Shown here: positions 1-63,840 of the stretch, one piece after another
Layout: every line of letters begins with the position of its first letter
Numbering within the stretch: position 1 is the stretch's first letter
Assembly: GCA_003056285.1 (NCBI GenBank)
Contig: NDWU01000003.1
Coordinates: 5,522 to 69,521, forward strand
DNA from: Candidatus Terraquivivens tikiterensis
GTDB taxonomy: Archaea; Thermoproteota; Nitrososphaeria_A; Caldarchaeales; Wolframiiraptoraceae
Reading direction: 5' to 3'
Length of the DNA: 64,000 nt
Program-made: the position numbers and the translations under genes
Notes under the pieces: generated by a model
The model's database searches: none
What the model was told of the DNA's origin: nothing
What the model saw: only the letters and a program-made list of their open reading frames with translations

Positions 1-714
1 TTACTCCTACATCCCAAAATAATTCACGAGAAACCAGTTTACACACCAATACCCACTTTAAACGAGGAAATGTGCGACCATTGCGGAAAATGTGCAAGTT
101 TTTGTCAGTACAACGCCATTTTCGTCGGCTACAAAAAAGTTCTAATTTTTCCAGAGCTTTGCCATGGATGCGGTGGATGCTTTCTCGTCTGCCCCAAAAA
201 GGCTATCGTCGAGGGGAAACATAGGATTGGAACATTAAAGCAAGGTTTCGTCGGAAATTTGGAGCTTGTTTATGGTGAGCTTGAAGTCGGCGAGCCCATG
301 GCTGTCCCATTGATCAGGGAGGTTAAAAGGCACATCGACAAGGGTAGAAACGTCATAATCGACGCACCACCCGGGGCTTCATGTCCGGTTATAGAGACCG
401 CAAAGGGAAGCGACTTCTGCATCCTTGTGAGCGAGCCCACACTGTTTGGTTTATACGATTTAAAAACAACAGTTCAAGTTTTAAGGGACATGAAAATTCC
501 ATTGGGTGTTGTCGTAAACAAGGCTGGTATAGGCGACAGGAAAGTTTACGAGTACTGTAAAGAGGAAGGCATACCAATCCTTCTTGAAATTCCTTTTCAG
601 AGAAAAATTGCTGAGCTTTATTCGAGGGGAATACCGTTCATCCAAGAGATGCAAGAGTGGAAGGAGGAATTCAGAAGGTTATTCGAAGACGTAAAAAGGC
701 TCGCAGGGAAATGA
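1..714 (+). CDS. MinD/CooC-superfamily P-loop ATPase with inserted 2x[4Fe-4S] ferredoxin domain (5' end outside window)
   Basis: Frame 1 is open from nt 1 (LLLHPKIIHEKPVYTPIPTLNEE precedes the Met at 70). Cluster motifs CDHCGKCASFCQYNAI and CHGCGGCFLVCPKKAI are followed by the IIDAPPG...VVNK ATPase half. The Walker A must lie upstream of the window. Confidence 0.8.
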   Translation, partial: LLLHPKIIHEKPVYTPIPTLNEEMCDHCGKCASFCQYNAIFVGYKKVLIFPELCHGCGGCFLVCPKKAIVEGKHRIGTLKQGFVGNLELVYGELEVGEPMAVPLIREVKRHIDKGRNVIIDAPPGASCPVIETAKGSDFCILVSEPTLFGLYDLKTTVQVLRDMKIPLGVVVNKAGIGDRKVYEYCKEEGIPILLEIPFQRKIAELYSRGIPFIQEMQEWKEEFRRLFEDVKRLAGK

Positions 715-1598
715 GGCAAATAGTTGTTTTGAGCGGTAAGGGTGGAACTGGTAAGACGACAGTATCGGCATCATTTGCCCTTCTAGCAAAGAAAGCCGTT
801 GTAGCCGACTGTGATGTGGACGTGCCGGACATGCATCTGCTTTCGCACCCAGAAATCGTAAAAAAGCAGGAATTTAGGGGCTCAAAGTTGGCGATAATCG
901 ATGGTTCAAAGTGCATAAAATGCGGTTTGTGTCAAAGGGAGTGCAGGTTTGAAGCTATAACGCAAAACTTTACCGTGGACCCGTTCTCGTGCGAGGGGTG
1001 TGGTGTTTGCACAGTTGTCTGCCCAGTTAATGCTATTACGTTAATGGAGCGCATTTCCGGATATGTCTACATTTCAAAGACGAAATATGGGTTTTTGGTT
1101 CATGCTAGGCTCAACCCAGGCGAGGCAAACTCTGGAAAACTTGTAACAATGGTTAGGCTAAATGCCAAATTGTTAGCTGAGGAAGAGAACATCGAGATCA
1201 TAATAATAGACGGTCCTCCTGGAATCGGTTGCCCTGTGATAGCTTCAGTTACAGGTGTTGATGCTGGTTTGGTAGTTACTGAACCTACGATGTCAGGCAT
1301 TCACGATTTGAAGAGGGTGCTAAGACTTTTGGCGCACTTTAATGTTAGGCCGTTTGTGTGCGTGAACATGTACGATTTAAACGTGAACAATGCAGAGAAG
1401 ATCTTGGATTTCTGCAAAGAAAATGGCATAAAAGTCGTTGGCAAAATACCTTTTGATGCAAAAGTTACGGAGGCCATGGTTGCTGAAAAAACGATAATAG
1501 AGTATTCTCCAGAAAGCGATGCTGCAAAAGAGATAGTGGCCATATGGAATCGGATTTGCGAAGAGCTAGGGTTGGGTGAGGCGTCTGCAAAGCATTAG
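711..1598 (+). CDS. MinD/CooC-superfamily P-loop ATPase with 2x[4Fe-4S] ferredoxin domain (paralog of upstream gene)
   Basis: ATG 711 overlaps the upstream stop (ATGA). Walker A LSGKGGTGKTT, ferredoxin motifs CIKCGLCQRECRF and CEGCGVCTVVCPVNAI, and IIIDGPPGIGCPV. Confidence 0.85.
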   Translation: MRQIVVLSGKGGTGKTTVSASFALLAKKAVVADCDVDVPDMHLLSHPEIVKKQEFRGSKLAIIDGSKCIKCGLCQRECRFEAITQNFTVDPFSCEGCGVCTVVCPVNAITLMERISGYVYISKTKYGFLVHARLNPGEANSGKLVTMVRLNAKLLAEEENIEIIIIDGPPGIGCPVIASVTGVDAGLVVTEPTMSGIHDLKRVLRLLAHFNVRPFVCVNMYDLNVNNAEKILDFCKENGIKVVGKIPFDAKVTEAMVAEKTIIEYSPESDAAKEIVAIWNRICEELGLGEASAKH

Positions 1599-2550
1599 GG
1601 AGCTTGTCTTTGGGCCTGTCCCCTCGAGACGTCTAGGAAGAAGTTTGGGGATAAACAACATACCACCAAAAACATGCTCATATTCATGCGTCTACTGTCA
1701 GTTGGGAAGGACAACGAACATGCTTGTTGACAGGCAAGCCTTTTATAACCCTCGAGACATCTTGATGGAGGTTAGAAGAAAAGTCGGTGAGGCTGCTCTA
1801 AGAAAGGAAAGGATAGATTATCTTGCTTTCGTGCCTGATGGGGAACCCACGTTGGATATCAACATAGGCGAAGAAATATCCCTTCTAAGGAAGATCGGCA
1901 TTCCGGTAGCCGTTATAACAAACTCTTCCCTTCTTTGGCAAGAGAGCGTTAGGGAGGGCTTGCTGGATGCCGATTTCGTTTCGTTGAAGGTGGATGCTGT
2001 CAGCCAAGACCTATGGAAGCACGTGAACAGACCTCATAAAAGTTTGAGCTTGGATATTGTTTTAGATGGCATAAAGGAATTTGCGAAGGAATTTAGAGGA
2101 ACCATCGTAAGCGAAACGATGCTAATCGACGGTTTAAAGTACGATGGATGGCTTGAGGAGGTCGCAGAGTTTTTGAAGGGGCTGAAAAGGCTGGACAAAG
2201 CTTACGTTTCTATACCAACGAGGCCACCAGCAGAGAAATGGGTTAAACCGGCTAAAGAGGAGGTCTTAAACTTCGCCTTTCAAATTTTCTCTGAAAAGCT
2301 GGGAAGCGACCGGGTGGAGTTCTTGATAAGCTATGAAGGGAACGCATTTGCCTTTACCGGAAATCTTGAAGAGGATTTGCTGGGCATAACGGCTGTGCAT
2401 CCTATGCGGAAAGAAGCATTGGAAGAATTCCTAAAGAAGGCAAACACAAATTGGCACATCGTTGAGAAACTTTTAGAAGAGAACAAGCTCATAGAGCTTG
2501 AGTATGAAGGAAATAAATATTACATGAGAAAGTTGCCGGGTAAGTATTGA
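1576..2550 (+). CDS. radical SAM domain protein (COG0731-like Fe-S oxidoreductase)
   Basis: N-terminal FGPVPSRRLGRSLGINN followed by the CSYSCVYCQLG CxxxCxxC motif. GTG start overlaps the end of the preceding ATPase gene by 23 nt; the start codon is uncertain. Confidence 0.75.
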   Translation: MRRLQSIRELVFGPVPSRRLGRSLGINNIPPKTCSYSCVYCQLGRTTNMLVDRQAFYNPRDILMEVRRKVGEAALRKERIDYLAFVPDGEPTLDINIGEEISLLRKIGIPVAVITNSSLLWQESVREGLLDADFVSLKVDAVSQDLWKHVNRPHKSLSLDIVLDGIKEFAKEFRGTIVSETMLIDGLKYDGWLEEVAEFLKGLKRLDKAYVSIPTRPPAEKWVKPAKEEVLNFAFQIFSEKLGSDRVEFLISYEGNAFAFTGNLEEDLLGITAVHPMRKEALEEFLKKANTNWHIVEKLLEENKLIELEYEGNKYYMRKLPGKY

Positions 2551-2768
2551 ACGGATCTATCAGGTTTTGGGATCGTAGGCGGAAACCTCACACCCTTAAA
2601 GGATGTGAGCAAACAGGAAGTGTGATTGCCATGAGCGGGTGGACGACGGTAACTGTGCAAAAAGAGGCGGAGGAATTGTTGAAAAGGTTCAGAATCGCTA
2701 AAAGAGAGTCTTATTAGACTGAGTCGGGATGAAGAAATTCAGCTAACATAAAAAAGCCCAAGCTCTAC

Positions 2769-2909
2769 CAAAAGCATAAAGAAAGGCTGCTTGAGACCTT
2801 AGGGCTGTCTGGGCAGACCCGATACGCCTGCTGAGAAGACACGCTTGTAGAGCCCGCAAGCTCCCTCGTTGAAGCAGGAAGACAGCCGGCTTCAGCCGCG
2901 GTAGCTCAC
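2769..2909 (+). mobile_element. IS200/IS605-derived MITE, copy I
   Basis: CTAC|CAAAAGCATAAAGAAAGGC left end and CCGGCTTCAGCCGCGGTAGCTCAC right-end hairpin align with copies C and H of the family. Confidence 0.45.
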
Positions 2910-2934
2910 GAGGTGAAGATCATTAAGGCCGGGC

Positions 2935-3858
2935 TCAGGCTGGCATGAAAACTGGATTGGAGTCCGTTACAGGCCTAGCAAGCTCGAACGCTCGGGCTAG
3001 GTATGGCGGTATGGCGAAGATTCTATGGTGAATTTCGGGCGAGTAAAAATCTAGACCACCGATCCCCCTTTCTTCCAAACGATGCCTGACCTCCTCAGGA
3101 GCGAGGCTCATGGGGTCAGCTGCCTTAGAGCCTAAGACGAAGCCCCACTCTGACATGTAAGACGGGACGAAGACATGGTAGGGTCTAGCTACCGGAAAAA
3201 CGCTCGCTACGGTCTTGTAAATAGCCGCGAAGCAATTCCTGCTGTAGTAGGTCGATGTGGCCTGCGTCACGAACAAACCGTCATCGCTAAGCTTCCTAGC
3301 CAACAGCCGGTAGAATTCCATCGTGTAAAGAAGGTAGGAAGGTCCCCCCTCTAATGGGTCCGTCACGTCGATTATCGTCACGTCGATGGAGCCGTCTGGA
3401 AGCCTCTCGACGTACTTCCTTCCGTCCTCGATGATTATCTTCACCCTTGGGTCTTCAAAGGAATCCATGTGAAACTCTGGAAGGTGTTTCTTGCATACTT
3501 GGACTACTTCCTCGTCCAGATCGACCATGACAGCACTCTCGACAGTTCTATGCTTTAGGACCTCCCTGAGCGTCGCGCCCTCACCGCCGCCTACGATTAG
3601 GACACGCGATGGTTTTGGGTGCGTAAGCATAGCTGGATGGACCAAAGCCTCGTGGTAGATTTTCTCATCCGCGCTGGAGGATTGTATCTTACCGTCGAGT
3701 ACCAAACATAGGCCAAAGTCGTAGGTCTCGACTATGTCGACCTCTTGGTATTTTGTCTTGCCGCTGTAGATGACGCGCTTAACCTTGTGGAGGACTGCAG
3801 AGTTTGGCGTCTGCCACTCCATTATAACCCTCCAGTTTACTTTGCTTCCTTCTGCCAA
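2935..3858 (-). CDS. speE: spermidine synthase (aminopropyltransferase)
   Basis: Typical N-terminal beta-domain, then VLIVGGGEGATLREVLKH SAM/dcSAM site and DLDEEVV. An alternative start MEWQ at 3822 would remove the 22-nt overlap with speH. Confidence 0.9.
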   Translation of the reverse strand: MAEGSKVNWRVIMEWQTPNSAVLHKVKRVIYSGKTKYQEVDIVETYDFGLCLVLDGKIQSSSADEKIYHEALVHPAMLTHPKPSRVLIVGGGEGATLREVLKHRTVESAVMVDLDEEVVQVCKKHLPEFHMDSFEDPRVKIIIEDGRKYVERLPDGSIDVTIIDVTDPLEGGPSYLLYTMEFYRLLARKLSDDGLFVTQATSTYYSRNCFAAIYKTVASVFPVARPYHVFVPSYMSEWGFVLGSKAADPMSLAPEEVRHRLEERGIGGLDFYSPEIHHRIFAIPPYLARAFELARPVTDSNPVFMPA

Positions 3859-4229
3859 AGGACCTCACCCTCTATGATCCCCCGCTTAAGCTCCTTCACG
3901 TACATACGGGTAGGCCTCATCTTCTTCCTAACTACTTCGTATGCCTTCCAAGGGTCCACTTGGCTTCCGCACGTGAACAGGTCTACTGCTGCATAGCCGT
4001 ACTCTGGCCATGTATGTATCGAAAAGTGAGACTCGGCGATGGCCAAGATACCCGTCACACCACCCCCTCCAGAAAACTTCTTGAAAAACTCTCCGAGAAC
4101 TTTAGCCCCCGAGGCTTGGGCCGCCTCGAGTAAGGTCGTCCTCAGAGCCTCCAAATCCCCGAGGATCGAGGCATCGCATCCGTACAGCTCCGCTATTAGA
4201 TGCCGTCCCAACTCCTTCACCTCAATCAC
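3837..4229 (-). CDS. speH: pyruvoyl-dependent S-adenosylmethionine decarboxylase proenzyme (class 1b; an arginine decarboxylase paralog cannot be excluded)
   Basis: GRHLIAELYGC, self-cleavage site AESHFSIHTWPEYGYAAVDLFTCG; sits directly upstream of speE. Confidence 0.85.
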   Translation of the reverse strand: MIEVKELGRHLIAELYGCDASILGDLEALRTTLLEAAQASGAKVLGEFFKKFSGGGGVTGILAIAESHFSIHTWPEYGYAAVDLFTCGSQVDPWKAYEVVRKKMRPTRMYVKELKRGIIEGEVLWQKEAK

Positions 4230-4661
4230 CTCTCAAAGCGAAGGAGTGGTCTGTCCCACCCCCTCTGCGAAGAGTTGTCCTTATTTTGAAGAGCAAAATC
4301 GGCTACTTTTAAACCCTTCGACGTTTTTACGTCTTTATTCAAAGAATTAATTAACATTATAGCGTAGCTAGCAAATCTCCTTATTCAACGTTTTGGCATC
4401 AAAATGCAATAAGGTTCTGTTTAGGTGTTGGTTGCTAAAGCTATCTTCTTGCTCGCCGATCGCTGTCCATGATAAGCGTGGCACCCATCCATATACTTTC
4501 TAGCACAGCACGACACCCATTCCTCATCCCATCATGCGACGATCGTGGCGGTTCTAAAGCCTCATACGTATCCGACCGGTATGGCACGGACTCCAAACTG
4601 CGATGGCTCTTGCCAGGTCCATTTTGGAGACGTCCATCGTTCGCCTTAAGTACTTTGGAAT

Positions 4662-5753
4662 TCACCTAGTAACCTCATAGCTTGAGACGAGCTCAAAAAG
4701 CTCCCTTGCTTTCTCGTTGCTCTCAAAATACCTCCTAATCGGCTCCAGTATCCTGTCTAGGGCATCCACGACCGCTCTTTTTAAGTCTAGCGGATGGATT
4801 CTGCCGAGCTCATAATCTTTCTTTAAGTGTTCGAAGTCCTCGTATAGCACGTCCCCTCCGTACTTTTGCGGCCTCTCTACGTAAACCCTACCCAGCTTTG
4901 GGAAGATTATGTACTTGCAGTATTCTATTATTGGGTTTGACTTTGTGTCTTTTGGCGGACAGTAAGCTTTCATCACTTTTTCCTCGAGCACTTCTCTAGT
5001 GTCGTGTACGTATATGCTTGTCTCCGGCACACTCTTGCTCATCTTGGAGCTTATCTGCATGTCTATCTCCGCATCATCGTCAAAACCCTTTGCCCCAGCG
5101 GGCCCTTTAAGGCCCATGAGCATGTGGTGGTGGACCGCTACTGGCTTAGATAGCCCGAGCTTCGGACCGATCTCCCTTGCAAGCATGTTCGCCCTTCTCT
5201 GGTCAAGGCCAAGCTGGCATATGTCAACCCCAAGATAGAATATGTCGGCGACCTGCATGGCCGGATAGAATAGCTGGGCAGCCTCCTGGAGCTCGCCCTC
5301 CTGCCTACCCATTATCGGGAGGCACCTGAGGAACCTCTTGAGCGTTGCCTCCTTCGCGACGCTTATGACCAACTTCCAGTAATCTCTATCGGCTGCAATG
5401 TCGCTGGCCCAAACGAGCTCCACTTTGTTGACGTCTATACCAGAGGCTTTCCAAACCTCGATTAAGTATTCGCCAACCTTCCTTATCTTCTCTAGGTCGC
5501 CGCCCATCTTCTTGTTTACCATCGCATGCCAGTCGGCGAGCAGCAGTTTGAATCTGCAACCGGCTTCCAGCATGTCCTTCAGCTTTATGGCCCTCAGTAT
5601 CGCGAAAGGTATGTGCGCAAGGCCGCTTGGCTCGAACCCATCATAGGCCACGGGCCTATCGTTCGTCTCCAAGAGTTGCCTCAGTTCCTGAAGCGTTATC
5701 ACCTCTTCTGTAGGCGACCTAGTAATAAGCTCCATCCTCGTCTCTACGTCCAA
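4662..5753 (-). CDS. tyrS: tyrosyl-tRNA synthetase (archaeal type)
   Basis: Collinear with M. jannaschii TyrRS: GFEPSGLAHI, LLADWHA, YPAMQVADIFYLGVD, KMSKS, AYCPP, HPLDLK. Confidence 0.9.
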   Translation of the reverse strand: MDVETRMELITRSPTEEVITLQELRQLLETNDRPVAYDGFEPSGLAHIPFAILRAIKLKDMLEAGCRFKLLLADWHAMVNKKMGGDLEKIRKVGEYLIEVWKASGIDVNKVELVWASDIAADRDYWKLVISVAKEATLKRFLRCLPIMGRQEGELQEAAQLFYPAMQVADIFYLGVDICQLGLDQRRANMLAREIGPKLGLSKPVAVHHHMLMGLKGPAGAKGFDDDAEIDMQISSKMSKSVPETSIYVHDTREVLEEKVMKAYCPPKDTKSNPIIEYCKYIIFPKLGRVYVERPQKYGGDVLYEDFEHLKKDYELGRIHPLDLKRAVVDALDRILEPIRRYFESNEKARELFELVSSYEVTR

Positions 5754-5821
5754 ATCAGCACCTTCCCTTTCGGTTTCATGCTCTACATGCTGCGTGTGTA
5801 TTTAAAAATGATGTGGTCGTT

Positions 5822-5900
5822 TTGCCCCACCACGAACACCACACCCCATAGAGCAGGGCTGCAACCCTTTCTCGGTGCGGCTTAAGGCATGGTGGGGCAA
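5822..5900 (-). ncRNA. candidate structured RNA (long hairpin with internal loops; H/ACA-like guide or pheT terminator)
   Basis: Perfect 11-bp GC-rich inverted repeat TTGCCCCACCA...TGGTGGGGCAA encloses 57 nt. On the minus-strand RNA an inner 7-bp helix CCGCACC/GGUGUGG (needs G-U pairs, fails on the plus strand) and an apical AGGG-UUGCAG-CCCU hairpin form. Confidence 0.3.
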
Positions 5901-5930
5901 TAGAAAAGTCGCCGACCCCGCTTAAAACCC

Positions 5931-7619
5931 TTACTGCACCCTCTTAAGCAAGCTGCGGACTGCTTGGAGCCCTATCTCGACTGCGCTTACGGGCATCTTT
6001 ATGTCAAAGGCTTCCAAGACCTCAGGGCTTACCTCGCCAATTATCCCTATACCGACACCGTCGAGCTTTATCTCTGCAACCCTTCCCTTGATGAAGCTGG
6101 CATGCTCGACCTCCCTTAGACTCCATCCCTTTAAGCCGAGGCTCCTCAGCAACTCCTCCAATACTGACTTAACCTCTGAGAAGGATGCGTCCGCATGGGA
6201 GCTCACGAGTGCCAACCTAGCCTCTCTCCTAACCCGCTCCCCAATGGATTCGTCGACCACCAAGACATCGCCTATTTCAAAAAGCCTGTGCGGGTAAGGG
6301 TTGTGCTTGTTCGTCGCCAGGTTGTATAGCAGACCTGGAAGGAGCCACGTTCTTAGTATGTCGTACTCCGTCGATACTGGGTTAAGAACCCTTACTGGGT
6401 TCTGAGGCTCAACCCTCATCCAAAGATAGTCCCTCGTGCTGTTGGAGAGCGTGAAGTTTATTACCTCCGTAAAGCCGAGCCCGAACATGATTTCCCTACA
6501 AACGTCCTCGAAATTTGTATCTGGGTGAAGTTTACCGAAGCCAGGAGTTTTAGGAACGACGGGCTGGAGGTTGTTGTACCCGAGGCCTATCGCTACCTCC
6601 TCCACAAGATCCACGGGGTGCATGACGTCAAGCCTGTACGGAGGGACCTCGGCGTAGATCACGTCACCCTTGACCTTCCTGACACCAACCCTTGACCTTT
6701 TTAACGCCCTGATAGCCTCCTTCACGGATATGTTAAGGCCGAGCAATTCGTTGGCATACTTTAGCTTGAGCTTCCAGACCCTCGCCCTTAGGTCTGGCGT
6801 AACCATCCTCATGTCATCATAAACTACCCTAACCTGTCTGATCCTTCCGCCGATATCCGCCAGCGCCGTCGTCAGTATGTTCAAAGCTCCGCTTACGGCT
6901 TCTAGGTCTGTACCGGTCACGTCTATGAAGAGCGTATCCGTCCCTTCCGTCAGCTCCGTCAGGGCTGAGTTTATTATGGGCGGGAGCGAGAGCACCTCGC
7001 CGCGCGAGTCCATGATGACCGGAAACAGCCCGGTTCCGGCCACTATATGGCCATACTTACGGCCGACCTCATGCTCCTCGACTATCTCCTGCGGCGTCAT
7101 CCTCCTGAAGCCCTTGAGGGGTACAAAGCTTACCCCGTCCCCCTTTACCGCCCTGTAGAATATCGGCGGCTTGATGACCTTGGCGTTGTGCAGGCCTATC
7201 GCTACCTTCTTCCTATTCCTTCCTACGACCCAGTGCAGGTCTTCCTGCATGGCTATCAGTTCCTCGATCTCTTCAGCGGACAGGTTAAGTCCCTCGACGT
7301 AAGCGGCGACGACCCAAGGCCTGACAGCCTTAACGCTCTCCTCAACCTTCACGTACGTCTTGGGAGGGAGTACTGTGAACTTCGGAATGCCTGTCTCCGT
7401 TCCAAGAATGCCCTTGATTGCCCTGGCAAGACCCGCCGGGCTGGAAAAATCCGGCCTGTTTGGGTTGTACTCAACCTTGACGTAGTCCACCCCGACCTCC
7501 TCGACGGCCACACCGATGTCCGTTAGGACGTCGACGAGCTCGTCTTTATCGAGCCTTTGGCTTAGAAGCTTGAAAAGCCTATCCAGCTTCAGGTTAAGTA
7601 TCGGCACTTCCTCACTCAC
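5931..7619 (-). CDS. pheT: phenylalanyl-tRNA synthetase beta subunit (archaeal)
   Basis: 562 aa with archaeal PheT layout (B3/4 and B5 domains plus a C-terminal class II-like core). pheS lies nearby. Confidence 0.9.
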   Translation of the reverse strand: MSEEVPILNLKLDRLFKLLSQRLDKDELVDVLTDIGVAVEEVGVDYVKVEYNPNRPDFSSPAGLARAIKGILGTETGIPKFTVLPPKTYVKVEESVKAVRPWVVAAYVEGLNLSAEEIEELIAMQEDLHWVVGRNRKKVAIGLHNAKVIKPPIFYRAVKGDGVSFVPLKGFRRMTPQEIVEEHEVGRKYGHIVAGTGLFPVIMDSRGEVLSLPPIINSALTELTEGTDTLFIDVTGTDLEAVSGALNILTTALADIGGRIRQVRVVYDDMRMVTPDLRARVWKLKLKYANELLGLNISVKEAIRALKRSRVGVRKVKGDVIYAEVPPYRLDVMHPVDLVEEVAIGLGYNNLQPVVPKTPGFGKLHPDTNFEDVCREIMFGLGFTEVINFTLSNSTRDYLWMRVEPQNPVRVLNPVSTEYDILRTWLLPGLLYNLATNKHNPYPHRLFEIGDVLVVDESIGERVRREARLALVSSHADASFSEVKSVLEELLRSLGLKGWSLREVEHASFIKGRVAEIKLDGVGIGIIGEVSPEVLEAFDIKMPVSAVEIGLQAVRSLLKRVQ

Positions 7620-14001: not shown

Positions 14002-14104
14002 GCGGGGGTTGCCAAGCCTGGTCAACGGCGCAGGGCTTAGGTTCCGTAGAGGATGGGATACCCTGTCCCGTAGGGGTTCGTGGGTTCAAATCCCACCCCC
14101 CGCA
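14002..14104 (+). tRNA. tRNA-Leu(TAG) with an 18-nt intron after position 37
   Basis: Acceptor GCGGGGG/CCCCCGC, D arm GCC-AAGCCTGGTCAAC-GGC, anticodon stem CAGGG/CCCTG with loop CTTAGG[TTCCGTAGAGGATGGGAT]A, long variable arm TCCCGTAGGGGTTC, T arm GTGGG-TTCAAAT-CCCAC, discriminator A. Intron about 14042-14059. Confidence 0.9.
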
Positions 14105-15556: not shown

Positions 15557-15859
15557 ATGTCAGAAAGCACGCATCCTTTGAAGTACTTGCTCGGATGGTT
15601 AATCGCGGGGACGAGGGGCGGCCCGACGAGGGCGAAGATACTGATGGCGCTAAAAGAGGCGCCGCAGAACGCCAACCAGTTAGCGAACAGGCTCAAACTA
15701 GACTACAGGACTGTAAGGCATCACCTTGAGGTGCTTGAGAAGAACAACTTGGTGGTCTCCGCGGGAGAAGGTTACGGTACCACGTATTTCCTCTCTCAGA
15801 TCATGGAGGAGAATTACGCGTTGTTCGAGGAAATCGTGAAGAAAATTTGGAAAAAGTAG
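15557..15859 (+). CDS. ArsR-family winged-helix transcriptional regulator
   Basis: PTRAKILMALKEAPQNANQLANRLKLDYRTVRHHLEVLEKNNLV is a classic ArsR/SmtB HTH. Confidence 0.8.
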   Translation: MSESTHPLKYLLGWLIAGTRGGPTRAKILMALKEAPQNANQLANRLKLDYRTVRHHLEVLEKNNLVVSAGEGYGTTYFLSQIMEENYALFEEIVKKIWKK

Positions 15860-15888
15860 AAAAGGGGGCGATACAGACGAATAGCAAA

Positions 15889-16326
15889 ATGAGCCAAGGA
15901 CCGAAGGCCTGGCTGTTGTTTGCACTCCTGCCGATTCTCATAATAGTGGCGTTTTTGACGGCCATGTGGGCGGTATCTACTTTTTGGTACCTTCACATTG
16001 CATGGCGTCCTAGATACCCGTACGTCATCCCGGGAGACATAGAGTTTTTCTACGTAGCGAAAACCGTTGTTTCAACCATTAACATAGCCCTACTAGTCTG
16101 CCTGCTGACCGTGTACGTTGACATATACAGGAAAACCAGGTCGGAGTTCACCGTCGGGCTGATAATATTTTCAGTAATACTCTTCCTCTATGCCCTTACC
16201 TCCAACCCCGTTGTGATGTGGGCCTTCGGGTTCAGGCCGTTTGGGCTCGGGCCCTTCGCTTTACTTCCAGACCTGTTCACGTTTGCGGCGCTCGTCGTCC
16301 TACTGTACCTCAGCATCAGATATTGA
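15889..16326 (+). CDS. integral membrane protein (4 TM), co-transcribed with the ArsR regulator
   Basis: ATG 15889 is preceded by AAAAGGGGG. Product has four hydrophobic helices. The tracked TTG start at 15847 overlaps the ArsR gene. Confidence 0.6.
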   Translation: MSQGPKAWLLFALLPILIIVAFLTAMWAVSTFWYLHIAWRPRYPYVIPGDIEFFYVAKTVVSTINIALLVCLLTVYVDIYRKTRSEFTVGLIIFSVILFLYALTSNPVVMWAFGFRPFGLGPFALLPDLFTFAALVVLLYLSIRY

Positions 16327-16504
16327 GGAGGAACCTGAGTGGGCTTCAGGTACTTTCCCGAAGCCATTCCGCTAACGTTAAGCACGATAGGCTGCCCAAT
16401 TTTACACGTAAGCTATCCACGGCTTTAGGCCTGTGCTTCCTGCCTCTAAGATGAAGCCTGCACTCTATATAGGATTTTCGCACTTCTCCATCAACCCTAT
16501 TTAC

Positions 16505-16744
16505 CAAATTCGGCGAGAAGGCCCGCATCTTTTATTAGTGGGATGAATCGTCGATAAAAGCCTTGAGCGGGTCGCTCACATGTGGCCTGGACGTCCAAAG
16601 GCCCGAATAAGGCTCCGGGCCGAAAAGGGAGGGGCTCAGGCAGGCGGGCATGGGCTGATTTGGCACAGCCCAGAACTCGGTATGATAAGGGGCTAAGCCC
16701 TGAAGAACCGAGAATCCCACGGCTAAAGTCCGTGGGAGTGTCAA
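16505..16744 (+). mobile_element. IS200/IS605-derived MITE, copy A (240 nt)
   Basis: TTAC|CAAATTCGGCGAGAAGGCCCGC...ATCCCACGGCTAAAGTCCGTGGGAGTGTCAA|G. Termini, both hairpins and internal blocks are shared with copies B, C, D and G. Confidence 0.7.
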
Positions 16745-16846
16745 GAGGGACTGTATAAACCTTATTCGCTCCAATCCAATCCATAAAAGTTGCGGGATTA
16801 AGCGTTGTTGTTATGAAACTGTAAGCATTTTATCCGAAAAGAGTTT

Positions 16847-17041
16847 TTAGGTAGCATTGCGCTGCCATGGAGGCCCTCCGCCCCTTCCTTTTCTTCCTCC
16901 CGGCGGACCCTTGTCTAGCCTGTGAATCATCATGGCCGGTGCCCCGCATCTAGGACAATTAACAGGTTTCGGAGCTCCTTGAGGGATCTCGATCACGTAT
17001 CCGCAGTTGCTGCACTGGAAGCTCTTCGTCGGTAAGCCCAT
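16847..17041 (-). CDS. zinc-ribbon protein with Gly/Pro/Arg-rich tail
   Basis: CSNCGY...CPRCGA ribbon followed by GPPGGRKGRGGGPPWQRN. The ATG directly abuts the TAG of the upstream gene. Confidence 0.6.
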   Translation of the reverse strand: MGLPTKSFQCSNCGYVIEIPQGAPKPVNCPRCGAPAMMIHRLDKGPPGGRKGRGGGPPWQRNAT

Positions 17042-17299
17042 CTAAGGTCCCTGTCTTCCTTTCTCGAGCATGCTCCTCAGCTCCTTTATCCTAGCTTCAA
17101 CCTCTGCTATCTCCTCTTCTATGCTTGCCTTTTCATCCTCCAGCTCTCTCTTGTAGTCCTCGAGGGCTGCCAGCTCATCTTCTAGGGATTGCGGGATCGG
17201 TGGATAAGCGTAAGGAAATGGTGGCGGATACGCATACGGATATAGAGGTGGGTAACCCCACCAACGTTGATATCTTCTACCTCTTCTCGGCCAAGCCAT
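17042..17299 (-). CDS. DUF5320-like small protein: aromatic/Pro-rich N-terminus plus C-terminal coiled coil
   Basis: 85 aa MAWPRRGRRYQRWWGYPPLYPYAYPPPFPYAYPPIP followed by heptad-like EDELAALEDYKRELEDEKASIEEEIAEVEARIKELRSMLEK. GGTGAG sits 8 nt before the ATG, 7 nt after the upstream TGA. Confidence 0.6.
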   Translation of the reverse strand: MAWPRRGRRYQRWWGYPPLYPYAYPPPFPYAYPPIPQSLEDELAALEDYKRELEDEKASIEEEIAEVEARIKELRSMLEKGRQGP

Positions 17300-17306
17300 T
17301 TCTAAC

Positions 17307-17585
17307 TCACCAGTATCCGTATAGCGGATACCAGTACCACGGGTACCAGTAGCCAAAGCCGTATGCCATGTACGGCCATGCGTATCCGTATAGCGGATAT
17401 GCCCACCACCATCTTGGAAGCCATGGGAATCTAGCGCAAACCCAAGGATTGTATAGGTAGCTCCACAACCATCCGAACCCTCTGCCGAAGCCAAACAGCC
17501 ATCCAGGCCTCTGCCATGGTGGCAAATAGCTAAACGGGCCCCTTCCAGGCCAAGGACCTGCCATACCTCTCCAACCCCACGCCAT
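17307..17585 (-). CDS. Trp/Tyr/Gly/Pro-rich small basic protein (DUF5320 N-terminal-like, no coiled coil)
   Basis: 92 aa from MAWGWRG (GGTGA SD upstream): 17 W, 14 Y, 6 F, 14 G, 13 P, 6 R, and no D/E/K/H. The N-terminus parallels the downstream gene (MAWGWRG vs MAWPRRG). Confidence 0.55.
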   Translation of the reverse strand: MAWGWRGMAGPWPGRGPFSYLPPWQRPGWLFGFGRGFGWLWSYLYNPWVCARFPWLPRWWWAYPLYGYAWPYMAYGFGYWYPWYWYPLYGYW

Positions 17586-17672
17586 GCTTTCACCAATTAT
17601 GTGAATATTCACAAAAATATAAATCTTCCGTTAAATGTATAGTGGGCGTACAGTAGTGGAGGAATTCTGCTA
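17586..17672. promoter_or_regulatory. divergent promoter region between the aromatic-protein cassette and the DUF134-like gene
   Basis: 87-bp AT-rich spacer with TATA-like AAAATATAAAT and TTAAATGTATA boxes. GGAGG lies 10 nt before ATG 17673. Confidence 0.5.
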
Positions 17673-18017
17673 ATGTGGCGGCATAGGCATAGGTACGGCA
17701 TGAGGGGGAGGCTTCCGAAGCCTATCAGGTTAGGCTCTGTTCCACCAGTAAGCAGCTTCGTCCCCCATCCGCCGAGGGATGCAGAACCAATACTTCTAGA
17801 AATAGCGGAGCTTGAGGCTTTCCGGTTGGTGGACCTAGAAGGGTTGTTTCAGGACGAGGCCGGGCGAAGGATGGGGGTCTCTAGGGGAACCGTTTGGAGG
17901 CTTGTTCAAAGAGCAAGAAAGAAAGTCGCTCAAGCGCTTAGCGAGGGAAGGCCTATACAAATCGTCCTCTACGATGCTAAGGACGAGGGGCAACCGTTGT
18001 CGGGTAGTTATAGTTAG
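17673..18017 (+). CDS. DUF134/UPF0251-family putative DNA-binding protein (sigma-70 region-4-like HTH)
   Basis: Basic N-terminus (RHRHRYGMRGRLPKP), then LEIAELEAFRLVDLEGLFQDEAGRRMGVSRGTVWRLVQRARKKVAQAL, the layout I recognise for DUF134. Confidence 0.7.
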   Translation: MWRHRHRYGMRGRLPKPIRLGSVPPVSSFVPHPPRDAEPILLEIAELEAFRLVDLEGLFQDEAGRRMGVSRGTVWRLVQRARKKVAQALSEGRPIQIVLYDAKDEGQPLSGSYS

Positions 18018-18539
18018 CTTTTCATAATACCCTTTCCGCCTCGGAATTAAAGGCCTTATGGATGGCTTTTGCCGCCAACGGCAAAGGACGGTACATTCGG
18101 GCATCTTGCATACCCCTTCGCTTATTTGCCCTATATCGGGTACCCGTTTGCCCGAGCCCCTCCAAAAATTCGGCCTAAAAGCTGTTGTCAGCAGTTTCAA
18201 ATTTGACATCCGAAAGGTACCACGATAAATACCCAAAGGAAGCCAAGCCCTATAAAAAGCCTCTGGTGGATCAGGAGGGGATGAGGCTCGAGGGCTAAGC
18301 GTGAATATGTATCCAAGCTTAGCCCAGAATACTTGCTCAGACCTTTGGAAATCCAAAAGGATTCGTTCAATGGGCATTATTACAAAGTTAACTATTCGGA
18401 GACTGTTGGTAACCCATTTCTTATGGTTAGAGATGTTTGGCGGGTTTATGGAAAATTTTCGCGTATACCGATACTGTTCATCGAGGAGGGAAAAGGTATT
18501 TAAAAATATATTGCAGTCGACCGTTCTTTTCCGAGCGTT

Positions 18540-20177
18540 ATGGAGCGGCCTTGGTATAAATTTTATCCGGAGGGTGTGCCAAAATCCATCGCTTATCCAG
18601 AAATACCTCTCCATGGGTTGCTGGAGCGCTCGGCTTCGACCTATCCAGATAGGACCGCTGTCATCTCTGGCGAGAGCGGATACAAGTTAACTTACCGTGA
18701 GCTGGATAGCCTAGCTTCAAGCTTTGCGAACGCTCTGGAGGGAATGGGTGCCGTTAAGGGCGATAGGGTCGCCATCTTCTTGCCCAACATACCGCAGTTC
18801 TTGATAGCTTACTACGGTGCGCTAAAGGCTGGCTGCGTGGTGACTACCATAAGCCCGTTGGCACGGGAGAGCACGCTGCTTTTCCAGCTCAACGACTCGG
18901 AGGCCGAGACTTTAGTCGTTTACGAGCCCCTGCTTCCTATCTTCCTTAAGGTTGCATCCTCCACTGCCGTAAAAAGGACATTTGTGACGAGCGGCAGCGC
19001 TGAGAGGGCCCCTCGTCTGCCGCAGGGAAGCTTTTACGACTTCGATAGGATGCTCTCGAGGCATCCTCCAGAATCCCCAAAAGTAGAGATAGACCCGAAG
19101 AAGGAACTGGCTTGCCTTCAGTATACTGGAGGGACGACGGGGACGCCCAAGGGAGCCATGCTTACACACTTTAACATGGTTTCCGATGCCATCGCGTTCT
19201 CCGCTTGGATAAAGTGTAGGTTTGCGGAGGAGACCTTTCTGACAGTTTTGCCACTTTCCCACATATTCGGCATGACGACTTCTATGAACTCGCCGATATA
19301 TGCCGCGGGAACTATCGTCCTGCTTCAAAAGTTCGACGTGAAGACTGTCCTGGAAACCATTCAGAGACACGGCATAACTGTCTTCTGCGGCGTACCAACG
19401 ATGTACGCGCTAATAGTCGCCTCACCGGAGGCTCAGTCGTACAACCTAAGGTCGGTAAAGTGCTGCATATCAGGCGGCTCGCCCCTTCCACCTGAGGTTC
19501 AGAGAAGGTTCATCCAGCTTATGGGCGGCGTCCTCGTAGAGGGTTATGGCCTGACCGAGTGCTCGCCGGGGACGCATACAAACCCCGTCGACCCCAGCAT
19601 GAAGACTGTCAAGATAGGTTCGATCGGCCTGCCATGGCCGGACGTCGATGCTAAGATAGTCGACCTCGAGACCGGAAGCAAGACGTTACCTCCCGGAGAG
19701 GTGGGCGAGCTCGTTATAAAGGGGCCGCAGGTCATGCTGGGCTATTGGAAAAAACCAGAGGAGACGAAGAACGTTTTAAGGGATGGTTGGCTATACACGG
19801 GCGACGTGGCCAAGATGGACGAGGACGGGTACTTCTACATCATCGATAGGAAGAAGGACCTCATAAAGCATAAAGGCTACTCAGTCTACCCGAGGGAGGT
19901 GGAGGATGCGATATACGAGCATCCGGCCGTGAAGTTATGCGCGGTCGTCGGCAAGCCAGACCCTATCGCTGGCGAGGTGCCGAAGGCGTTCGTCGTCCTG
20001 AAGGATGGGGCCCAGCTTACGGCTGACGAGCTCATCAACTTCCTTAAGGACAGGTTGGAGCCGTATAAGTTGGTAAAGGAGGTCGAGTTCAGGAAAGAGT
20101 TGCCCTTAACGCCTGCGGGCAAGGTTCATAGAAGGCTGCTGAGGGAGGAGGAGCTAAGCAAATTCTCAAAACGTTAA
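18540..20177 (+). CDS. AMP-dependent acyl-CoA synthetase/ligase (fatty-acid-CoA ligase-like)
   Basis: LQYTGGTTGTPKGAMLTH AMP-binding motif, GYGLTE, TGDVAKMDEDGYFYIIDRKKDLIK. Confidence 0.9.
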   Translation: MERPWYKFYPEGVPKSIAYPEIPLHGLLERSASTYPDRTAVISGESGYKLTYRELDSLASSFANALEGMGAVKGDRVAIFLPNIPQFLIAYYGALKAGCVVTTISPLARESTLLFQLNDSEAETLVVYEPLLPIFLKVASSTAVKRTFVTSGSAERAPRLPQGSFYDFDRMLSRHPPESPKVEIDPKKELACLQYTGGTTGTPKGAMLTHFNMVSDAIAFSAWIKCRFAEETFLTVLPLSHIFGMTTSMNSPIYAAGTIVLLQKFDVKTVLETIQRHGITVFCGVPTMYALIVASPEAQSYNLRSVKCCISGGSPLPPEVQRRFIQLMGGVLVEGYGLTECSPGTHTNPVDPSMKTVKIGSIGLPWPDVDAKIVDLETGSKTLPPGEVGELVIKGPQVMLGYWKKPEETKNVLRDGWLYTGDVAKMDEDGYFYIIDRKKDLIKHKGYSVYPREVEDAIYEHPAVKLCAVVGKPDPIAGEVPKAFVVLKDGAQLTADELINFLKDRLEPYKLVKEVEFRKELPLTPAGKVHRRLLREEELSKFSKR

Positions 20178-63729: not shown

Positions 63730-63840
63730 GGGCCCGTAGCTCAGCCAGGTAGGGGATTCCGCCTAGAGCGGTGGGCTCTTAGGTTTGCTTAAAACGGAGT
63801 AACCCATAGGCCGTGGGTTCGAATCCCACCGGGCCCGCCA
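63730..63840 (+). tRNA. tRNA-Lys(CTT) with two introns (D-loop and canonical 37/38) and encoded CCA
   Basis: Acceptor GGGCCCG/CGGGCCC, D arm GCTC-AGCCAGGTAG[GGGATTCCGCCTAG]AGC, anticodon stem GTGGG/CCCAT with loop CTCTTA[GGTTTGCTTAAAACGGAGTA]A, T arm GTGGG-TTCGAAT-CCCAC, then G and CCA. Introns at about 63753-63766 and 63782-63801. Confidence 0.85.

Follow-up and report, generated by a model that had tools for sequence, protein, structure and literature searches.

A split, tryptophan-rich archaeal variant of the DUF134–DUF5320 system and its candidate operator in Candidatus Terraquivivens tikiterensis

The archaeal repressors MDR1, LrpA and Phr bind between the TATA element and the transcription start site and block the recruitment of RNA polymerase. 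Regulators of the LuxR/GerE type, whose helix-turn-helix (HTH) is related to region 4 of sigma-70, bind palindromes as dimers, as in the case of TraR on the tra box ATGTGCAGATCTGCACAT. DUF134 (PF02001; UPF0251, COG1342) and DUF5320 (PF17253) are long-standing "conserved hypothetical" families that occur widely in anaerobic archaea and bacteria. DUF5320 comprises small proteins rich in Gly and Arg that end in a coiled coil and are usually encoded beside DUF134 and NifX-like genes. PDB sequence searches turned up no solved structure for either family, and the only joint mention that we found is a motif scan that flagged the Methanosarcina DUF134 and DUF5320 proteins as RG-motif proteins (PMC7565180). 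Here we analyse a stretch of 64,000 nucleotides of contig NDWU01000003.1 of Candidatus Terraquivivens tikiterensis (the window), in which a DUF134 gene, D, diverges from a cassette of three small genes, A, B and C. We classify this module as an archaeal variant, split and Trp-rich, of the catalogued DUF134–DUF5320(–NifX-like–MinD) system, and not as something categorically new. With even confidence, we read the locus as the Bathyarchaeia-type version of the widespread DUF134–DUF5320 divergent pair, in which A, B and C would serve as the adaptor of an Fe-S/metal-cofactor system under DUF134 control.

On the minus strand of the window lie gene A (17585..17307), encoding a 92-aa protein rich in Trp, Tyr, Gly, Pro and Arg, gene B (17299..17042), whose 85-aa product joins a degenerate Pro/Tyr-rich N-terminus to a coiled coil of DUF5320 type, and gene C (17041..16847), encoding a 64-aa CxxC...CxxC zinc ribbon. 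Gene D (17673..18017, plus strand) encodes a 114-aa DUF134/UPF0251 regulator with a basic N-terminus and an HTH resembling sigma-70 region 4. As read from the sequence, the TGA of A is followed after 7 nt by the ATG of B, and the ATG of C (17041) comes immediately after the TAG of B (17044-17042). A GGTGA Shine-Dalgarno sequence (17590..17594, minus strand) stands 4 nt upstream of the ATG of A, at a place where GAGGTGA is found before the A-type gene of relatives, and a second GGTGA overlaps the stop codon of A, 7 nt ahead of the ATG of B. On the other side of the AT-rich spacer of 87 bp that separates A from D (17586-17672), a Shine-Dalgarno-like GGAGG (17658..17662, plus strand) precedes D. 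A packed A-B-C set, a spacer and a divergent D had been described in a sequence-only reading of this DNA, and that description is confirmed in every detail.

Small genes of this composition might be mere artefacts of a non-coding or repeat-like region, as could be argued from their low-complexity sequence, from the absence of C among the gene calls of the JGI annotation of the source metagenome, and from a 184-aa open reading frame (ORF) in the frame of B that runs through the whole of A (17042-17596, minus strand). However, in the ten genomes with the cassette A, B and C have ratios of nonsynonymous to synonymous substitution rates (dN/dS) of 0.15, 0.10 and 0.13, in the same range as the 0.09 of D. 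For all four genes synonymous sites are saturated at a dN of ~0.15-0.25, and third-position changes are 2.4-4-fold more frequent than those at the first and second positions. The low dN with saturated dS, together with the third-position excess, therefore indicates that A to D are conserved as proteins and not merely as DNA, the latter being an outcome that the sequence-only reading had named as a refutation. In addition, gene order and spacing are conserved across phyla and the small proteins have hundreds of protein-level homologues. We conclude that A, B and C are genuine, slowly evolving small proteins under purifying selection; an artefactual origin is next to impossible.

The 184-aa ORF was rejected as a gene and is explained as a composition effect, since the frame is open in 11.7% of codon shuffles of A. 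Also rejected was the idea that A and B are a single gene split by a sequencing error: the split recurs in about 25 loci, and the two ORFs of the window are out of frame with each other, a separate GGTGA belonging to each of them. Rfam searches, of the whole window with gathering thresholds and of 16300-18600 at the E-value level, placed no RNA family in or beside the cassette. The promoter and terminator scan used bacterial models and is uninformative for an archaeon.

The assignment of D, proposed earlier from the sequence alone, holds in the Pfam search: D matches DUF134 (PF02001) with 76.4 bits against a cut-off of 27, over profile positions 6-89 of 98, and has the basic N-terminal arm and the sigma-70-region-4-like HTH of the family. 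Specifically, the HTH scores 36.0 bits with PF08281 (Sigma70_r4_2) and 28.0 bits with PF04545, both above the respective cut-offs. The score with the NCBIfam equivalog model PRK04217, 93.1 bits, lies below the cut-off of 115; thus D is a member of the DUF134 family and not an equivalog of the PRK04217 model. The PDB sequence search with D had sigma factor region 4 as its best and weak match (E = 0.05), beyond which it gave nothing for D. The N-terminal sequence MWRxRxRxGxRGRxPKP is kept in orthologues, which supports the start of D at 17673; the JGI annotation starts the gene at Met10 and gives a protein of 105 aa. DUF134 amounts to an HTH and little else, at about 100 aa and without a ligand-binding domain, and D has no sensor domain.

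The spacer between A and D contains a perfect 14-bp palindrome, TGTGAATATTCACA (17600..17613), which we propose as a candidate DUF134 operator (O1) on the basis of its positional conservation and of a position weight matrix (PWM) built from relatives. O1 is flanked on one side by the ribosome-binding site of A and on the other by the adjoining TATA-like element GATTTATATTTT (minus strand, 17614..17625), which probably serves both divergent genes. In relatives, TTTATATATTT stands immediately ahead of the operator. Allowing one mismatch, 64 of 67 loci have the pattern TGTG-N6-CACA at -16 to -45 from the start codon of the A-type gene. Both the place and the sequence of the palindrome are maintained in relatives from Bathyarchaeia, Hadarchaeota, Korarchaeia, Thermococci, Asgard and Thermoprotei.

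Exact copies of TGTG-N6-CACA were counted over 521 kb of related loci. Among the 92 copies, 80 are found within the 100 bp that precede A, 11 in the corresponding intergenic region of loci whose A start was unrefined, and one elsewhere. This corresponds to 11.9 copies per kb of promoter against 0.023 per kb of other sequence, a difference of about 500-fold. Two operators are found in 36 promoters, one in 25 and three in 5, with a spacing of mostly 24 or 29 bp, and 54 of 66 promoters have a TATA-like hexamer at most 16 nt upstream of the operator, as against 1.9% of background 16-mers. The consensus promoter reads TTTATATATTTc - O1 - TAATTGaaaa - O2 (TGTGCATAAGCACA) - aaata..GAGGTGA..ATG, and the window has its single-operator version, with TATA, O1, TAATTG and GGTGA in this order. 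O1 scores 27.5 bits with the PWM, the range of exact sites being 19.3-30.7 bits, and the next best site in the 64 kb scores 9.4; it is also the only exact match to TGTG-N6-CACA in the window.

The canonical DUF5320 loci L082 and L085 show the same gene order and the same promoter, with TATA, O1 and O2. Where D is co-directional with A (in Hadarchaeota and others), the operator stays with A, and weaker operator-like sites precede D. One strong operator-like site, of 21.8 bits, precedes an EncFtn-like ferritin gene and stands beside a TATA-like box. These operator-like sites lie at L025 1078, L012 673, L026 2806, L065 3575 and L069 3442. The sites before co-directional D genes and before the EncFtn-like gene hint at autoregulation and at a small iron-related regulon.

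Taken together, these data make the TGTG-N6-CACA palindrome most likely the operator of DUF134, a family for which no DNA target is on record in the literature searched; nor was a TGTG-N6-CACA operator met there. Like the sites of MDR1, LrpA and Phr, the operator is proximal to TATA, starting 2 to about 6 nt after it, and in relatives the predicted start site is covered by another copy, 24-29 bp beyond the first. These three repressors belong, however, to other HTH families, and binding and repression by D are putative. A D dimer would bind the two half-sites, whose centres are about 10 bp, or about one helical turn, apart. With D bound at O1, between the TATA box and the start of transcription predicted for A, the recruitment of RNA polymerase would be blocked and A-B-C repressed. 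On the side of D, O1 abuts the same quasi-symmetric TATA where the B recognition element (BRE) would sit, and for this reason D probably represses itself too. The conserved palindrome next to TATA thus gives substance to the earlier proposal of a self-regulated module, with D as the presumed ligand. The tra box of TraR offers a further parallel, which we treat as a lead only: the HTH class is related and the half-sites TGTGCA / TGCACA are strikingly similar, but the spacing is TGTG-N8-CACA in the tra box and TGTG-N6-CACA here, D has no autoinducer or receiver domain, and the present system is archaeal.

As for the small proteins, A consists of motif 1 (GPWPGRGPFSYLPPWQRPGW), motif 2 (CARFPWLPRWWW) and an aromatic tail, with no coiled coil, and has no match in Pfam or NCBIfam. 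Its 268 homologues are mostly archaeal, and many of them are longer and carry PF17253; the two motifs are near-invariant among homologues, as P-P-W-Q-R-P and F-P-W-L-P-R-W-W-W. A profile search over 1.84 billion representatives retrieved only 162 clusters at E <= 1e-3, and the family of A is therefore small; many of the members of these clusters have motif 2 without motif 1. The AlphaFold2 (AF2) model of A, from 120 sequences, has a mean predicted local distance difference test (pLDDT) score of 49.8, and only the two motifs reach about 60-65, so that A is predicted to be a disordered protein with conserved linear motifs. The PDB sequence search with the A family yielded coiled-coil noise only.

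B, for which 17 homologues were found, matches DUF5320 (PF17253) with 21.7 bits (E = 4.6e-4), under the 27-bit threshold and only over the coiled-coil part of the model, profile positions 42-98. AF2 models B as a single helix at residues 39-82, with block-mean pLDDT values of 90-96 over 41-80 and a regular a/d heptad of L/I/V, preceded by a disordered N-terminus. The coiled coil of B (PQSPEDELAALEDYKKELEEEKASIEQEI.DVEARIKELK) is found behind three kinds of N-terminus, namely the canonical DUF5320 type (MPRGDRTGP..GYCAG), the A type and the truncated B type, the last of which retains in B the remnant RRYQRWWGYPP (compare PRWWWAYP). The homologue P0124, which combines the canonical N-terminus with a B-type coiled coil, reaches 67.7 bits with PF17253. 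An A-type protein with a C-terminal coiled coil of its own occurs in about 25 loci according to a crude composition test, among them the A+B-type fusions of L005, L019, L022, L030 and L063; the split A/B form is present in about 25 further loci. A-type and canonical N-termini occupy the same position ahead of the same coiled coil, and their profile–profile match in hhalign is weak, with a probability of 25%.

Since the same coiled coil stands behind three N-termini, A and B appear as complementary halves of one architecture, A being the N-terminal, motif-bearing half and B the coiled-coil half of an archaeal DUF5320-like protein, as judged from sequence comparison. The coiled coil is that of the family, and close homologues with the MPRGDxTGP...GYCAG N-terminus pass the Pfam model. 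In the same way, the order DUF134 <-> DUF5320 -> Nitro_FeMo-Co and the promoter layout equal those of canonical loci. The differences are that the architecture is here spread over two genes, that B stays under the threshold, and that the N-terminus of A, with GPWPGRGPFSYLPPWQRPGW and CARFPWLPRWWW, goes unseen by the Pfam model. The sequence-only reading had pictured a module of disordered or assembly-prone proteins, one of them with a coiled coil, and had pointed to DUF5320. The small proteins are real, the relation to DUF5320 holds through the close homologues of B, and the AF2 models agree with disorder in A and one long helix in B; A and B are, on the other hand, two halves of a known architecture and not unrelated proteins.

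The product of C is a Cys4 zinc ribbon by its sequence, as had been recognised earlier: both knuckles, C10-x2-C13 and C29-x2-C32, are conserved in the alignment. Even more conserved is the tail MIHRLDKGPPGGRRGRGGGPPWQR, which is nearly invariant, the conserved tail of gene C being MIHRLDKGPPGGRKGRGGGPPWQR; in other orthologues it varies after PPW (WRR, WAQ). This tail (GPPGGR...GGPPWQR) resembles motif 1 of A, and among 4219 ORFs of the related loci the sequence PPWQR is present in A-type and C-type proteins only. In Pfam and NCBIfam, C itself has only sub-threshold matches to generic zinc-ribbon and rubredoxin-like models; a precomputed match to PF27353.1 is on record for 10 of 11 homologues of C, through which we assign it putatively to PF27353. 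The homologues P0138-P0147 carry the JGI labels "ribosomal protein S27AE", "RpoP" and "DUF1610", which probably reflect generic zinc-ribbon similarity. C directly follows B or a fused A+B gene in 12 loci, from 11 Bathyarchaeia-type metagenome-assembled genomes (MAGs), which include one labelled Nitrososphaeria and one labelled "bacterium"; in three Hadarchaeota loci it directly follows MinD ATPase genes.

The genomic context was scanned with one genome per GTDB species, which gave 80 loci, mostly from Bathyarchaeia and also from Hadarchaeota, Nitrososphaeria, Korarchaeia, Thermococci, Methanocellales, Thermoplasmata, Hodarchaeaceae and several Thermoprotei; the closest relatives of the cassette genes are in Bathyarchaeia MAGs. 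In 65 of the 80 loci, D is found at a distance of at most 4 kb from the A-type gene, and in 47 of these 65 it is its divergent, immediate neighbour. The order D | A-B-C recurs with separate genes in about 10 other genomes and in two more with A and B fused. In 56/80 loci, NifX-like genes (PF02579) are found at most 1.5 kb downstream of A on the same strand, and a NifX-like gene comes directly after C in almost every A-B-C cassette. Genes for MinD/NUBPL-type ATPases are present in 40/80 loci, in several of them (Hadarchaeota) within the same operon, and three Hadarchaeota loci have the order D-MBL-A-B-NifX-like-NifX-like(x2)-MinD-MinD-C. The canonical loci L082, L083 and L085 have DUF134, DUF5320 and NifX-like genes in the same order as the relatives.

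Less frequent neighbours in the same 80 loci are radical SAM genes (9), DtxR-FeoA (10), EncFtn-like ferritin (8), FeoB (6) and NifU (5), and ABC-3 metal permeases and flavodoxin occur in smaller subsets. GRGMG-rich tails or linkers, reminiscent of the Gly/Arg-rich parts of DUF5320 proteins, were seen on the NifX-like proteins of L014, L021, L026, L032, L041, L043, L059, L067, L068 and L073. The link to MinD-like Fe-S ATPases, named in the sequence-only reading, is real in relatives (40/80 loci). The self-contained, enzyme-free cassette that it proposed does not stand, as the operon of relatives continues into NifX-like genes and half of the loci include MinD/NUBPL genes.

In the window, the place where nearly all relatives carry a NifX-like gene is taken by a gap of about 520 bp (16327-16846) without a convincing ORF. 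By tblastn, no NifX-like gene or relic was found in this gap or anywhere in the 64-kb window, and Rfam has no match in the gap. A query that ran past the gap into C matched relatives only in its last ~40 bases (~16858-16900), which belong to the 3' end of gene C.

The missing partners have counterparts elsewhere in the same genome. The left end of the window carries, on the plus strand, the 3' part of a gene for an ATPase of MinD type that has a ferredoxin insert (1..714; phmmer 6e-27 to 4e-28 to MinD proteins of related loci), a second ATPase gene, of MinD/NUBPL type and with a 2x[4Fe-4S] insert (711..1598; Pfam ParA/NUBPL, CbiA and Fer4; a 295-aa product is on record) and, as the last gene of the operon, a radical SAM gene (1576..2550; PF04055). 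The latter matches at E = 3e-161 the radical SAM gene of L004, which lies about 0.8 kb from the cassette of that locus. L086, which is 100% identical to window positions 1-6598 and extends 4.3 kb further left, has the full 278-aa form of the first MinD gene and, ahead of the MinD genes, two NifX-like genes (L086 3199-4290, left of the window). The operon order is thus NifX-NifX-MinD-MinD-radical SAM, with genes about 14-19 kb from the cassette and about 14 kb between the end of the radical SAM gene and C. Its promoter, about 1.1 kb left of the window, has TTTATATAATTT followed by TGTGCATTGTTACA (L086 3171-3195), a site with one mismatch and 16.6 bits. L086 has, in addition, an exact palindrome, TGTGCTTAAGCACA, inside a ribonucleotide reductase gene (L086 1058-1071, about 3.2 kb left of the window), which may be there by chance, about 0.2 such sites being expected in 10.9 kb.

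With this operon located away from the cassette, the system would be split over two loci, and we regard the second locus as a putative part of the same system on the strength of its gene content and promoter. The system is not enzyme-free once the second locus is counted. The NifX/NafY-like (PF02579) and MinD/Mrp/NUBPL Fe-S trafficking systems are accordingly close in kind, as their genes share an operon with the A-type gene in most relatives and form, here, a second locus with a similar promoter; they differ in that none of their genes is in the cassette itself, and the role of the small proteins among them is a presumed one.

The radical SAM gene brings up a further explanation, in which A, and perhaps C, would be the precursors of Trp/Tyr-rich peptides that are made on the ribosome and modified by a radical SAM enzyme. 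In favour of this are the small size of the proteins and their many aromatic residues, and a radical SAM gene is present near the cassette in 9 of the 80 loci and at 1576-2550 of the window. However, most loci have no such gene, the cassette has no leader/core organisation and no maturase, protease or exporter genes, and the conserved part of A is N-terminal and in many relatives fused to a coiled coil. The HTH regulator, the NifX-like proteins and the ATPases give the system a cytoplasmic character, and we regard a peptide pathway as very improbable. As to anti-phage defence, PADLOC models gave only weak coiled-coil and zinc-ribbon noise with the cassette.

The composition of the small proteins suggests, in turn, that A, B and C could be RGG/aromatic low-complexity proteins that bind nucleic acids or form condensates in some general role, beside Fe-S genes by coincidence. 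Gly/Arg/aromatic composition, predicted disorder, B as a coiled-coil oligomeriser and the recurrence of RG-rich tails on several proteins of these loci would fit, as would the G-quadruplex-binding-like RG motif flagged in the Methanosarcina DUF134 and DUF5320 proteins (PMC7565180). Against this, P-P-W-Q-R-P and F-P-W-L-P-R-W-W-W are near-invariant, which argues for specific recognition rather than generic stickiness. The linkage to DUF134, NifX-like and MinD genes is moreover tight and specific, and the presence of only one strong site in 64 kb makes the regulator look dedicated. A general role of this sort is improbable.

Two single-ORF fusions bear on the partners of the small proteins. At L050 3656-4258, in a Thermoplasmata MAG, DUF134 is fused to an A-type motif and a DUF5320-like coiled coil; at L054 2112-2561, in a Methanocellales MAG, DUF134 carries a C-terminal CxxC..CxxC zinc ribbon with an RG tail. 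Each fusion was seen once. They suggest that the small proteins contact D, while operon partnership and the RG-rich tails held in common suggest contacts with the NifX-like/MinD machinery too. For this reason, we favour a model of an adaptor centred on the coiled coil, with a co-regulator role as its chief rival.

In this rival model, A, B and C would be co-regulator or sensor subunits of DUF134, with B dimerising and the Cys4 site of C or the motifs of A sensing metal or redox state, and NifX-like and MinD genes would be targets only. Several observations are consistent with it: DUF134 is a bare HTH without a ligand-binding domain; the Rosetta-stone fusions join it to an A motif with a coiled coil and to a zinc ribbon; the adjacency of D and A (65/80 loci) is the most conserved link; A-B-C remain with D where the system splits, as in this genome; and C scores weakly with rubredoxin-like models. 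On the other side, each fusion was found only once, NifX-like genes follow the A-type gene closely and on the same strand in 56/80 loci, C of Hadarchaeota comes after the ATPase genes and not beside D, and the NifX-like proteins of the same loci have similar RG-rich tails, suggesting a direct partnership. We consider a purely co-regulatory role a tentative and rather doubtful alternative.

According to the adaptor model that we prefer, A, B and C would be made together by translational coupling. B would oligomerise through its coiled coil and act as a hub, to which A and C could dock via their common Gly/Pro/Arg/Trp motifs. The resulting complex would work with NifX-like cofactor-binding proteins and MinD/NUBPL-type Fe-S ATPases, a partnership from which we infer the biochemical function of the module, namely that it would handle, or report on, the supply of iron or Fe-S cofactors; D, too, may receive feedback from the small proteins.

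A number of points weigh against this model. The cassette of the window is without the NifX-like gene that nearly all relatives have after C, and the link to iron is guilt by association, found in a minority of loci. The operator-like site of the second locus has one mismatch and, at 16.6 bits, scores under the 19.3-30.7 range of exact sites, and an equally scoring site lies inside the ribonucleotide reductase gene. That D and not another factor would read the palindrome is suggested solely by co-localisation, and some operator loci, e.g. L003, show no D within 4 kb. The likeness between the tail of C and motif 1 of A is short and low in complexity, and each of the DUF134 fusions is seen in a single MAG. 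Finally, the literature searched gives nothing functional on DUF134, DUF5320, UPF0251 or the corresponding COG/Pfam numbers.

A bolder version, which we think unlikely, is that oligomers of DUF5320-type coiled coils are multivalent scaffolds whose Arg/Gly/aromatic stickers would recruit zinc-ribbon and NifX-like proteins, by way of the matching motifs and RG-rich tails of the latter two, to a membrane-less Fe-S/metallocluster hub in anaerobic archaea, the abundance of which would be set by a hub-sensing, operator-reading DUF134 repressor.

The cassette had been put forward in the sequence-only reading as an undescribed system. The families are already catalogued (PF02001, PF17253 and, for the homologues of C, PF27353), so that "undescribed" applies to the function and not to the existence of the system. 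What the analysis chiefly adds is a precise candidate for the operator and for the regulon, through which DUF134 and DUF5320 become experimentally approachable. The testable handles are a candidate operator conserved over several archaeal phyla and a promoter layout that predicts repression. The putative small regulon comprises DUF5320-like, zinc ribbon, NifX-like, MinD-Fer4 and radical SAM genes, sometimes with a ferritin-like gene, and PPWQRP, FPWLPRWWW and GPPGGRRG..GGPPW are candidate interaction motifs. If the link to iron and Fe-S is true, the system would represent a dedicated regulatory and accessory layer for cofactor handling in uncultured archaea such as Bathyarchaeia and Hadarchaeota.

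Among other features of the window, an ArsR-family HTH gene (15557-15859, plus strand) overlaps by 13 nt a DUF8036 gene (15847-16326, plus strand) encoding a hydrophobic protein of 159 aa (145 aa in the JGI call); the two apparently form a separate small pair of a regulator and a membrane protein beside the cassette. Two transfer RNA genes, at 14002-14104 (103 nt) and 63730-63837 (108 nt), were found by Rfam and missed by ARAGORN in bacterial mode; both presumably carry introns, as is typical of archaea.

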